64,000 nucleotides of DNA from Thermoplasmatota archaeon. Its GTDB lineage: Archaea; Thermoplasmatota; Thermoplasmata; UBA10834. The DNA lies in assembly GCA_040751795.1 (NCBI GenBank), contig JBFMHR010000003.1, positions 264,421 to 328,420 of the forward strand, in the 5' to 3' direction. The first letter of the stretch is position 1. Each line of letters starts with the position of its first letter. A program made the position numbers and the translations under genes. Shown here piece after piece: positions 34,872-37,305 of this stretch. The notes under the pieces were generated by a model that made no database searches, had not been told where the DNA came from, and saw only the letters and a list, made by a program, of their open reading frames with translations.

Positions 34872-35231
34872 TCATACCGTCGCGACCGCCATCCGCCTCG
34901 GAATGCTGCCTGGTCCGGGGAACTCTGCAGCTGGTCGGGCGAGATGTGCCTATGAATGGGGCAGAGGGATTCAAGCTCCTGCAGAGCCAATGTGTCCGGA
35001 GCCTGAGGAAATCAAGCGGGACTTCGTACGGGGACGACCCGTTTGAGTCCTCCGCTACCCCCCCTCATCGCCATCAACGAGATCGATCTGCGCCTGAAGG
35101 TTGATCGCCTCAGGCCGGCACGGCAAGCCCCCTTAGATGGACAGCCGCCCAGCAGTAGGCATGTGTCCGACAACTTTAAAGTTCACATACATAATGGGAT
35201 ATATCCGATAATTATTCATATTAGTGGCACA

Positions 35232-35861
35232 ATGAGATATATTGTGACATTCCGACTGAACGGACACGGACTCCCGCGTTACATTCGAGAGGGGGACAAG
35301 GTCGAGCGCATCTATCGGGTACTGCTGAGCAGACGCGGGGCGGGCCAGACGTGGTATCGTATCGCCAAGGCAGCTGATGTGAGCTACGGCTGGGCCCATC
35401 ACATCTTGCAGAACTTGGAGCGCGACGGCCTGATTGATGGGTCAAGGGTAATCGAGCCCCGATCACTGTTCTTGAAGTGGGCGCGGAGAAGGGATCGCAG
35501 GCTATTTCGAGAATACAACATCCAGGAGCCAGATGAACTCATCTCCGAATCGAAACTCGACCACGCATTCACTGGCTACTTCGCCGAGAACCACCTGGGT
35601 CGGTACCTGTTCCCGCGTTTGCGGGAATTCTACGTCAAGGCGGATGACAGAATGAAGTGGCATCAGCTCCTCACGAGGCATGGATATGTAGGCAGGGGGA
35701 ACACGCTGGTTCTCCTGGCCGACGACCATGTGTTCTTCGAAAGACAGAATGTCGACGGCTACCCTCTTGTGTCTACACAGCAGCTGATTGCCGACCTTTA
35801 CCGCACTGGGGCTGAGTGCGCAGAGGCAGCTGACATCTTGGTCTCGAAGGTCTACCCATGA
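35232..35861 (+). CDS. AbiEi-like antitoxin / wHTH transcriptional regulator (type IV toxin-antitoxin, inferred)
   Basis: N-terminal winged helix (ERIYRVLLSRRGAGQTWYRIAKAADVSYGWAHHILQNLERDGLI). 4-nt overlap with the downstream nucleotidyltransferase gene. Local GC is markedly lower than the surroundings. Confidence 0.5.
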   Translation: MRYIVTFRLNGHGLPRYIREGDKVERIYRVLLSRRGAGQTWYRIAKAADVSYGWAHHILQNLERDGLIDGSRVIEPRSLFLKWARRRDRRLFREYNIQEPDELISESKLDHAFTGYFAENHLGRYLFPRLREFYVKADDRMKWHQLLTRHGYVGRGNTLVLLADDHVFFERQNVDGYPLVSTQQLIADLYRTGAECAEAADILVSKVYP

Positions 35862-36658
35862 CCGTACCGCTCTATGATCCGCAGGAAACCGATGCGGCAT
35901 TGACAGCCCTTGGGGAACTCTCGAGGTCGTTGCCAGAACCATTCCTCCTCATGGGTGGATGGGCCGTCTACCTCACCGTCAATGAGTCCTTCAGCAGAGC
36001 ACACGGATCGCCGTATCTCGGTTCCCGGGACATCGACGTATGCTTTCACGTCGAACCCGATCAGACCGTGGAGGCTCTGCGTACCAGCACGTTCGCCAAG
36101 GCCTTGAGCATCGTCAGAGAGGCTGGCTATACACCCCACGGCTCCTTCCGATTCTGCAAGGTGATCCGCAGAGTCGACGGAATGGTTCTGACCGAGGAGG
36201 CAGCGAAGAGGCATCCGCTCCACGAGACCTCCTACCTTTACGTCGATATGATGGTGGACAACGTACATCCGCAACACAAGCACATCTTCAGATGCGACCC
36301 GCTCGATGAACCCCTGGCGGCTCGTGTGTTCGAAAGCGGTGAGGTTGTCCGGCGATCATTGGGGGACTTCAGAGTCCACACTCCTGCTCCGGCGTCCCTG
36401 CTCGCCACAAAACTGAGGTCTATTCCCAAGCGACAACTGGATGACAAGCTCTGGAAGGATGCATGCGATATCTACTCTCTCATATGGCATTCATCGGAGG
36501 ACTATTCGTCAATACTCGCGAAGGTGAGGAAGGAGTATCCCGATGGTTGCTCGGCGGCGCGTGGGGCGATGACGGATGAGGTCGTGGCTCGGGCCGCCCA
36601 TCATATCGGAATCGGGGACGATGAGTTCGCGAGCGTTGTCGATCTCCTGGATGGATGA
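35858..36658 (+). CDS. AbiEii/DUF1814-like nucleotidyltransferase (putative toxin)
   Basis: MGGWAVYL...GSRDIDVCFHV matches the GG-x-AL...R-x-S-x-D-x-D pattern of nucleotidyltransferase-fold toxins. Confidence 0.55.
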   Translation: MTVPLYDPQETDAALTALGELSRSLPEPFLLMGGWAVYLTVNESFSRAHGSPYLGSRDIDVCFHVEPDQTVEALRTSTFAKALSIVREAGYTPHGSFRFCKVIRRVDGMVLTEEAAKRHPLHETSYLYVDMMVDNVHPQHKHIFRCDPLDEPLAARVFESGEVVRRSLGDFRVHTPAPASLLATKLRSIPKRQLDDKLWKDACDIYSLIWHSSEDYSSILAKVRKEYPDGCSAARGAMTDEVVARAAHHIGIGDDEFASVVDLLDG

Positions 36659-36754
36659 CGCGACGCTTTCCGCAGACATCCTCCAGACTCCGCCTGGGCA
36701 GCATGCCCGAAGCCGGAGGATTTCAGACGACGCCATGCCCGGCACCCCCGGTGC

Positions 36755-36760
36755 AAAAAA
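36755..36760 (-). terminator. Oligo-T tract (TTTTTT) downstream of tRNA-Trp
   Basis: T6 run about 47 nt 3' of the tRNA on the minus strand. Archaeal terminators are typically oligo-T. Confidence 0.3.
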
Positions 36761-36806
36761 CCCCTTGATTTCTCGGACCGATGACTATACTGGCTATGCC
36801 TAGGAG

Positions 36807-36981
36807 TGGGGGCAGAGGGATTTGAACCCCCATCGACGGGTTTCCTCCACGCGGAGAGCGACTCCGCGCGTTCTACGGACTATGGGTCATCGCTCCAGTT
36901 ACTCATCACTGGTCAGCAAACCCAACGGAAATCATTCCCATAACTGGAGCCCGTAAGGATACCAGGTTACCCCATACCCCC
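36807..36981 (-). tRNA. tRNA-Trp (anticodon CCA) with a 102-nt intron at the canonical 37/38 position; the intron carries box C/D-like motifs
   Basis: Exons fold by hand. Acceptor GGGGGUA/UGCCCCC with discriminator A. T-arm GGGGG-UUCAAAU-CCCUC. Anticodon stem ACGGG/CCCGU, loop CUCCAG. Intron contains GUGAUGA and CUGA, and CTGGAG complementary to the anticodon-loop CTCCAG (BHB-like). No encoded CCA. Confidence 0.75.
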
Positions 36982-37181
36982 AGAGTGGTTTGGACGCCGG
37001 GGAGCCTACTTCTTCCTCAGCTTCTGAGCTCTCTTCCGTCTCCTCATCTTCTTCTTGCGCCACTTCCATCGCTGCTTGCCGCGCTTCTTCCAGGCACGTG
37101 AGCTCCTCTTCATCGGTCAGACTCCCTCGCGTCTTTTGGGCGTACAACGCCCCCCTTTTATATGTCTTTTGGAGGCCAAGG

Positions 37182-37305
37182 CGGGCCGGTCGGGACTTTC
37201 GGGCGCTTCGGGCGCCTTTCGAACCCGAGACCACTGGCTTGCCTCACCGCCCCTTAAGGGGCGGATTAGAAGGCCAGTGCTATATCCTGACTAAGCCACC
37301 GGCCC
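37182..37305 (-). tRNA. Candidate tRNA-Arg (anticodon UCU) with two putative introns (27 nt at 37/38, about 22 nt in the T-loop)
   Basis: Perfect 7-bp acceptor GGGCCGG/CCGGCCC. D-arm GCUUAGUCAGGAUAUAGC. Anticodon stem CUGGC/GCCAG, loop CUUCUAA. T-stem UCGGG/CCCGA encloses UUCGAAA plus a GGCGCCCGAAGCGCC hairpin insert. Confidence 0.4.

Follow-up and report, generated by a model that had tools for sequence, protein, structure and literature searches.

A putative AbiE/MenAT-type toxin-antitoxin pair in a low-GC islet beside an archaeal tRNA-Trp gene

The 64,000-nucleotide stretch of a Thermoplasmatota archaeon analysed here (contig JBFMHR010000003.1, positions 264,421 to 328,420, hereafter the window) carries, beside an archaeal tRNA-Trp gene, an islet of about 1.85 kb with a low content of guanine plus cytosine (GC). 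The islet holds two open reading frames (ORFs), ORF-A and ORF-B, that we consider likely to encode the antitoxin and the toxin of an AbiE/MenAT-type toxin-antitoxin (TA) module. They are the only credible genes between flanking core genes that are syntenic with those of relatives, and they overlap by 4 nt (ATGA). The gene content is thus as described in a first-pass annotation made from the letters alone, namely a winged helix-turn-helix (wHTH) gene and a nucleotidyltransferase (NTase) gene with a GSRDIDV motif (LGSRDIDV in ORF-B). The features of the locus are given below in window coordinates; the prefix L denotes loci compared with the window, att an attachment site.

34947 to 34977, plus strand: distal att-like repeat of tRNA-Trp sequence (3' trailer and 3' end) that marks the left edge of the islet (exact 14-mer at 34958-34971; shuffle test; copies in relatives).
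34975 to 35040, plus strand: R1, an arm of about 65 nt, presumed to be the element-side att arm (alignment with L005, L004, L110, L098 and L090/L010; blastn).
35164 to 35182, plus strand: distal promoter-like unit (box TGTCCGAC and TATA-like TTTAAAGT).
35202 to 35220, plus strand: proximal promoter/operator-like unit (box TATCCGAT and TATA-like TATTCATA).
35244 to 35861, plus strand: ORF-A, putative antitoxin and autoregulator, 205 amino acids (aa) from a conserved GTG (209 aa from an ATG at 35232).
35858 to 36658, plus strand: ORF-B, putative toxin of 266 aa, an NTase of the DUF1814/AbiEii superfamily (PF08843, motifs, AlphaFold2 model, Foldseek).
36670 to 36760, plus strand: R2, a degenerate second att+R unit in the 3' untranslated region (UTR) of the toxin gene (aligns with att+R units of relatives).
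36806 to 36981, minus strand: tRNA-Trp(CCA) (intron-aware ARAGORN); the islet ends on the right at the 3' end of this gene (36806-36830), which is the proximal att copy.

The GC profile bore out the compositional anomaly noticed by eye. The interval first delimited, 35100-36760, had a GC content of 56.8%, the window mean being 64.9% (z = -3.3), a value as low being found in only 0.6% of the 1661-nt segments of the 64 kb, the lowest of which starts at 35151. Within it, the stretch 35161-35280, also flagged as AT-rich, had 39.2% GC, with a minimum of 38.3% for 120-nt segments (start 35151) and 0.08% of such segments as low. The drop was moderate across the two genes (about 53-59%) and sharp only at the promoter. 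A perfect 14-nt direct repeat, GGGGCAGAGGGATT, was found at 34958-34971 and at 36809-36822, the second copy being the 3' end of the tRNA; in shuffles of the window the mean number of matches to the 14-mer was 0.05, and none of 100 shuffles reached the observed two. Because this repeat of the tRNA 3' end bounds both sides, the islet spans about 34947-36806, slightly more than initially proposed. It does end, as had been stated, at the 3' side of a tRNA, whose 3' end faces the islet 148 nt from the toxin stop codon. No integrase was detected in the window, in agreement with the first reading, or in the loci anchored on the neighbouring PAC2 gene, by tblastn with the integrase that lies beside a homologous pair in the archaeal locus L008.

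ORF-B matched a single Pfam family, AbiEii (PF08843), at 23.0 bits (cut-off 22.5, E = 8.9e-5), as did 26 of the 35 aligned members of its clade at E <= 0.01 (best 3.2e-7), none of which matched another family. Both proteins have NCBI entries of 100% identity, from a Candidatus Thermoplasmatota metagenome-assembled genome, and that of ORF-B is named 'AbiEii/AbiGii toxin family'. DUF1814 toxins are defined by motifs I and II, hG[G/S]-x-DhD with an Arg in II, by motif III and by motif IV, +DxxD, the motif III of the COG4849 branch being KLxAaxxR (Dy et al. 2014, PMC3985639). In ORF-B these are motif I, G33-G34; II, S56-R57-D58-I-D60; III, K185-L-R-S-I-P-K-R192; and IV, K200-D-A-C-D204; together with D130. 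Throughout the clade motif III reads K-[L/I]-x-[S/A]-[I/V/F]-x-x-R and is of the COG4849 type. None of the 72 unique homologs, which come from many archaeal phyla, departs from ORF-B in the Asp triad (D58, D60 and D130), on which the first-pass annotation had made its assignment depend, or in any other residue of the DUF1814 motifs. S56 was likewise invariant; it lies two residues ahead of D58 and is placed by the AlphaFold2 model on the loop 50-57 that precedes the catalytic strand 58-63. Auto-phosphorylated residues occupy the equivalent position in AbiEii (T65, in T65-x-D67), MenT3 (S78) and MenT1 (T39), and a Ser or Thr is reported to be strictly conserved there in COG2253 and COG4849 (PMC11375011).

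The AlphaFold model of ORF-B was of high quality (pLDDT 93, pTM 0.91), and its best matches among solved structures by Foldseek were the DUF1814-like 5UVD (2e-6) and MenT1 (8AN5/8AN4, 4-5e-5), all with a probability of 1.0. As modelled, ORF-B folds like the DUF1814 toxins, as a polymerase-beta (pol-beta) NTase, and none of its catalytic or family-specific motifs is disrupted. Matches to Sec18 and PARP9 in phmmer and profile searches against PDB sequences were discarded as chance. Every sequence and structure criterion tested places ORF-B in the DUF1814 superfamily, with a narrow margin of score.

Two starts are available for ORF-A, the ATG at 35232 and the GTG at 35244, with a common end at 35861. 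The GTG and a leaderless mRNA are favored because the ATG is missing in loci of Methanomassiliicoccales in which the DNA is nevertheless conserved, and because the proximal TATA-like element lies about 25-32 nt upstream of the GTG; the Prokaryotic Genome Annotation Pipeline also chose the 205-aa product. The transcript is thus probably leaderless and begins at GTG 35244.

In the numbering of the 209-aa form, ORF-A consists of an N-terminal TrmB-like wHTH (about residues 26-70), found in 27 of 31 members of its family, and of an NTase-like C-terminal domain (72-209) with the fold seen in AbiEi antitoxins. Residues 72-203 aligned, with a score below the Pfam threshold, with model positions 1-137 of 143 of Pfam AbiEi_2 (PF09952), a family that was matched by five of the 31 members at E <= 0.05 (best 2.6e-4) and that we take to be COG4861; the other Pfam AbiEi families gave no match to ORF-A. 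AbiEi itself is reported to return Rv2827c, adenylyltransferases and 5UVD (Beck et al. 2020), and ORF-A therefore reproduces the AbiEi structural signature of a wHTH joined to an NTase-like domain. Since the canonical DxD position reads [D/E]132-x-Y134 in ORF-A, with the Tyr invariant, this domain is probably inactive. A conserved turn, A-D164-[D/E]-H166, is a candidate for a loop that, by analogy with AbiEi and MenA3, may reach into the toxin active site.

Scanning species-representative genomes yielded 161 loci, nearly all archaeal, in Thermoplasmatota, Methanomassiliicoccales, Methanoregula, Methanocella, Methanosarcinales, Halobacteria, Thaumarchaeota, Bathyarchaeota, DPANN and Asgard. In 87 of the 89 loci that were fetched the ORF-A homolog ended at the start of the NTase gene, the other two being cut by contig ends. 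Pairwise identities of the two proteins were strongly correlated (r = 0.93), and ratios of nonsynonymous to synonymous substitution (dN/dS) of 0.09-0.17 for both genes, 0.11-0.14 for ORF-B, indicated purifying selection. The two genes are thus always adjacent, diverge together and are both under selective constraint. The 132 nearest neighbouring ORFs fell into 90 Pfam families, with occasional marks of mobile elements; since none of these families recurred outside one lineage, the module has no third component. A HEPN-MNT system, with an NTase antitoxin and a HEPN toxin, was considered and dropped, there being no HEPN partner and both proteins pointing to AbiE/MenAT.

Three of these loci deserve separate mention. 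In L006 and L007 (P0066 loci) the pair lies in a TA- or defence-like island with a HepT-MNT pair and three AAA_14/DUF4143 ATPases, and the island also holds a 125-aa AbiEii fragment on the opposite strand. L021, the sole 'bacterial' locus of the scan, is a 3.1-kb contig binned as Proteiniphilum sp. that carries the same pair as the archaeal L008 and the same integrase (95-99% identical), and is probably a mis-binned archaeal contig and not a bacterial occurrence.

That the pair might not be a TA system at all, but a wHTH regulator with an NTase of non-toxic role, either in modification of small molecules (ANT/Lnu-like) or in regulated processing of tRNA 3' ends, is a reading to which we give little credence. 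It draws on the pol-beta fold, which is shared with antibiotic NTases and CCA-adding enzymes, both seen among the weaker structural matches, on the toxicity of ORF-B being argued from relatives, and on the long and stable inheritance of both genes under purifying selection. It accounts poorly for AbiEii being the only sequence family matched, for the invariance of the DUF1814-specific motifs III and IV and of the candidate phospho-acceptor Ser, and for a partner with the architecture of AbiEi antitoxins. The 4-nt overlap, the strict pairing, the patchy spread across archaeal phyla, the low GC and the variable context are likewise typical of TA systems, as is placement in a TA/defence island (L006) or beside an integrase (L008).

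When compared with known systems, the pair most resembles the COG4861-COG4849 sister pairing, as a divergent archaeal clade distinct from canonical COG5340-COG2253 AbiE. With the AbiE of Streptococcus agalactiae and Lactococcus lactis, ORF-A shares an N-terminal wHTH and an AbiEi-type C-terminal domain, without significant match to the COG5340-type AbiEi families; motifs I and II are separated by 15 residues in AbiEii and by 23 in ORF-B, whose motif III is of the COG4849 type (KLxSIxxR); and PADLOC models of AbiE mostly fail on the clade. The present pair is moreover archaeal and has a putative promoter built on a TATA element and a TFB recognition element (BRE). The first-pass identification as AbiEi/AbiEii-like therefore stands for ORF-B, as a member of DUF1814/AbiEii, and for the architecture of ORF-A, not for the COG5340 sequence family, which ORF-A does not match. 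MenT1 of Mycobacterium tuberculosis (Rv0078A), a COG4849 NTase acting on tRNA 3' ends and the second-best solved-structure match of ORF-B after 5UVD, has the same motif set and the same phospho-acceptor position (T39 for S56). It is nonetheless only 15% identical and is shorter (about 190 aa against 266), as it is without the helical extension at the C-terminus of ORF-B; its antitoxin MenA1 is small and, unlike ORF-A, has no wHTH. In the predicted COG4861-COG4849 pairs (Dy et al. 2014) a gene for a wHTH regulator precedes that of a DUF1814 NTase with a motif III of the KLxAaxxR type, as it does here.

A close archaeal parallel is PygAT of Pyrococcus yayanosii, an AbiE-type pair on the 21-kb island PYG1, where AbiEi-AbiEii lies at the tRNA-proximal end, next to tRNA-Gln and oriented as in the window, with the integrase at the far end (PMC5126054). 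PYG1 is likewise a low-GC island at a tRNA 3' end, bounded by direct repeats and with the 3' end of the toxin gene facing the tRNA. It differs in extent (21.4 kb, a working integrase and 43-bp repeats, against 1.85 kb, no integrase and an exact repeat of 14 nt) and in the pair itself, PygT being a member of COG2253 and PygA of COG5340/DUF4095.

The 39%-GC stretch coincides with the promoter region, the core of which is the proximal unit at 35202-35220. Its box, TATCCGAT (35202-35209), occupies the BRE position ahead of the TATA-like TATTCATA (35213-35220); the distal box, TGTCCGAC (35164-35171), has two mismatches to it and is followed by the TATA-like TTTAAAGT (35175-35182). The consensus ATATATCCGATAnnTnTAAATA is common to homologous loci of several orders, usually in two copies 37-38 nt apart, and the exact octamer TATCCGAT was present in 14 of 79 upstream regions (background, 0.004 per 200 nt), its distance to the start being fixed. 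From this pattern the box could be a strong BRE, an operator that competes with transcription factor B (TFB), or both.

The history of the islet was read from the loci anchored on PAC2, in which the tRNA-Trp-PAC2-aminotransferase synteny is conserved and the content downstream of the tRNA varies, as listed here.

Window and L004: pair alone.
L005: pair and a 1.5-kb gene, the latter between the R2-equivalent unit and the tRNA.
L010/L090: pair and a 7-kb insert without integrase, the insert lying between pair and tRNA.
L098: no pair; an att+R unit just 104 nt from the tRNA.
L101 and L102: no pair; an additional att copy was not detected.
L103: no pair; an att copy 3.4 kb from the tRNA (3921).
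L104: no pair; a partial tRNA copy 0.9 kb from the tRNA (1700-1818).
L110: no pair; two att copies (1581 and 2566) that bound islets of 558 nt and 985 nt.

The distal att copy is better preserved at the same place in relatives (19 of 20 positions in L005, 18 of 20 in L004), where it includes the tRNA 3' trailer, and in many of them it is followed by the arm R of about 65 nt, whatever the cargo. The possibility that arm R and the att copy form a pseudo-tRNA was dropped, as the sequence past the T-arm was, on informal comparison, unlike a tRNA body. Additional direct copies of the 3' part of tRNA-Trp (up to 138 nt, reaching into the intron) bound pair-less islets of 0.5-3.4 kb in relatives. The tRNA-Trp gene is a hotspot of recurrent, serial integration in this clade, and the R2 unit in the toxin 3'-UTR is read, from its alignment, as the trace that a second integration left at this tRNA; in L005 and L010/L090 additional cargo (1.5 kb and 7 kb) lies between a unit of this type and the tRNA. 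The 7-kb insert of L090 (400-7380; same genome as L010) has 54% GC versus 61%. Its genes include one for an ice-binding-like protein (PF11999, E = 1.5e-72), one for a regulator with ArsR-HTH, PAS and GAF domains and several for secreted or membrane proteins of unknown kind.

Synonymous divergence (dS) between the window and L005 was 0.82 and 1.05 for the two genes of the pair and 0.46-1.26 for flanking core genes, and the GC content of the pair tracks that of the host with a deficit of 6-8 points. Because the dS of the pair falls within the range of the core genes and its GC follows the host, the acquisition is old, with vertical inheritance since then in this sub-clade. The proposed horizontal origin is upheld by the low GC, the repeat of the tRNA 3' end, the presence/absence pattern and the unrelated contexts, and is refined as to its age. 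The context is not the GC-typical, vertically inherited one that would have spoken for native genes, as the pair has a lower GC content than its flanks in 64 of 79 loci, by 4.3 points on average, is absent from several relatives that share the tRNA-Trp-PAC2 synteny, and lies in unrelated contexts elsewhere.

The same observations bear on the reading that there is no foreign islet, in which weak expression of the genes and an archaeal promoter rich in AT would alone account for the GC dip, and chance for the 14-nt repeat. Such a reading fits the sharpest dip being the promoter, a pair dS equal to that of neighbouring core genes and a repeat of only 14 nt in the window. It is largely refuted, and we regard it as very improbable: both coding regions have 56-58% GC against 65%, with the same offset in those 64 of 79 loci; the repeat is not expected by chance, is longer in relatives and extends into the tRNA trailer; and relatives with identical synteny lack the pair (L098, L101-L104 and L110).

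Association with tRNA genes is not restricted to tRNA-Trp. The density of tRNA genes was 9-fold higher within 600 nt of the pair than at greater distances in the same loci (p = 6e-8), or roughly 5-fold if related tRNA-Val loci were counted as one event. Islets bounded by repeats and holding only the pair were found at four tRNA genes, namely Trp (1851 and 2067 nt), Val(CAC) (seven loci, 1883-2048 nt, with a repeat of up to 53 nt in L016), Val(GAC) (weak, about 1760 nt) and Glu (1646 nt). In L008 a tyrosine integrase precedes the pair beside tRNA-Thr, within a larger element.

This recurrence admits a more unusual reading, in which the unit of promoter, ORF-A and ORF-B (about 1.6-2.1 kb with short arms) is not the decayed remainder of a larger island but a minimal cassette without integrase that is moved in trans by tRNA-targeting tyrosine recombinases and persists by addiction. 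The similar size of pair-only islets at four different tRNA genes, the 9-fold enrichment near tRNA genes and the serial small insertions at tRNA-Trp that share the same arm R speak for it. If true, the cassette would be among the smallest site-specific mobile units in archaea, yet we hold it to be unlikely. Between islets at different tRNAs, similarity at the DNA level is confined to the promoter and the two genes (35198-36654 for the window and L001), so that there is no shared att arm to define a cassette; about 70 of 84 loci are not next to a tRNA; and a circular or excised form is not known. Decay of islands with retention of an addictive TA system would give the same pattern, and in L008 and PYG1 the pair does lie inside larger elements with an integrase.

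Taken together, we consider it likely that the pair is an AbiE/MenAT-type two-gene TA module that arrived as cargo of an element integrated at the 3' end of tRNA-Trp and that has persisted while the remainder of the element was lost. Low GC, bounding copies of the tRNA 3' end and variable presence among relatives characterize the islet. The repeated survival of the pair as sole cargo between tRNA-derived repeats would be explained by addiction, and the simplest reading is that larger islands decay while the addictive pair is retained; the label of remnant given to the islet at first pass is plausible.

Several observations weigh against this interpretation. The AbiEii score of ORF-B exceeds the Pfam cut-off by 0.5 bit, and the AbiEi_2 match of ORF-A, its only one outside the HTH families, falls below the cut-off (16.9 vs 21 bits). 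PADLOC AbiE models matched at most four of 35 toxins, all weakly, and two of 31 antitoxins at E <= 0.01; for the pair in the window they gave no match to ORF-B and an AbiEi match to ORF-A at E = 0.042. NCBIfam returned no match for either protein, and profile searches against PDB sequences returned nothing for the pair. The spacing of motifs I and II is eight residues wider than in AbiEii, the structural similarity of ORF-B to MenT1 is moderate (TM 0.42/0.55), and MenT3 and MenT4 were not among its significant Foldseek matches (E <= 0.001). An integrase was absent from the 7-kb insert of L090 as well as from the window. As the dS of the pair equals that of core genes, the 'foreign' signal lies in GC, repeats and presence/absence, not in recent transfer. 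The TATCCGAT box may simply be a strong BRE rather than an operator, no relative of the pair was found in IMG/VR viral contigs, and the literature searched contains no experiment on this clade or on any COG4861-COG4849 pair.

The mode of action that we propose is modelled on relatives of the two proteins. AbiE/MenAT systems, whose toxins target the tRNA 3'-CCA, are now described as type VII, in which the antitoxin induces auto-phosphorylation of the toxin (bioRxiv 10.64898/2026.01.19.700257); the type IV label of the first-pass annotation is outdated. By analogy with AbiEii and MenT1/3/4, free ORF-B would add nucleotides to tRNA 3'-CCA ends and so block aminoacylation and translation, leading to growth arrest. 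The C-terminal domain of ORF-A would bind across the active-site face of ORF-B and neutralize it by occlusion, by induced auto-phosphorylation of S56, or by both, while its wHTH would act as a repressor of the operon at the two TATCCGAT boxes, which lie where the BREs of the tandem TATA units are expected. The biological role would be post-segregational stabilization of the islet, abortive-infection defence, or both. In outline, the initial description as a TA or abortive-infection module is supported, neither a degraded Asp triad nor a GC-typical native context having been found.

The tRNA genes next to the islet showed features of their own. Default ARAGORN and Rfam at gathering thresholds found no tRNA in the window, and the output of ARAGORN at a lowered threshold was obvious noise and was disregarded. 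With introns allowed, ARAGORN identified a minus-strand tRNA-Trp(CCA) gene at 36806-36981 that is interrupted by an intron of 102 nt (about 36844-36945), and the gene is kept with the same intron (99-102 nt) in 16 PAC2-anchored relatives and in L005. The intron (36844-36945, minus strand) holds a unit resembling a box C/D small RNA (AUGAUU, CUGA, GUGAUGA, the guide GUAACUGGAGCG and AUGA), with an Rfam sR3 match at 36885-36939 (E = 0.007). The guide GUAACUGGAGCG is complementary to the junction of anticodon loop and intron and places C34 opposite the fifth base from box D. This arrangement is known from euryarchaeal tRNA-Trp introns, where it directs 2'-O-methylation of the tRNA itself.

A second tRNA, Arg(TCT), lies at about 37190-37305 on the minus strand; it is missed by ARAGORN and reaches only 20.8 bits with Rfam. 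A 27-nt intron in its anticodon loop is present in the window, L005 and L090 and absent from L093 and L100, and an insert of about 21 nt in its T-loop forms a hairpin with compensatory changes in all five loci. This represents a non-canonical second intron with presence/absence polymorphism. The 200-nt spacer between the two tRNA genes (36988-37140, minus strand) gave weak Rfam matches of box C/D type (sR30, E = 0.45; sR36; sR14), and a 100-aa ORF that overlaps both tRNAs (36932-37234) is probably spurious.

DUF1814 NTase toxins such as AbiEii and MenT have been characterized mainly in a few bacteria, and the window provides a clean archaeal example in which the catalytic and regulatory residues are intact. 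Because PADLOC largely misses this clade, which occurs in 161 representatives of archaeal species ranging from DPANN to Asgard, archaeal AbiE-type systems may be under-counted in surveys of immune systems. Serial small insertions mark the tRNA-Trp gene of this locus as an integration hotspot, and the recurring end-state of islets reduced to the pair offers a natural illustration of addiction-driven persistence. Current understanding is not overturned by these findings, which describe an ordinary module of a known family, from an archaeal branch that has received little study.

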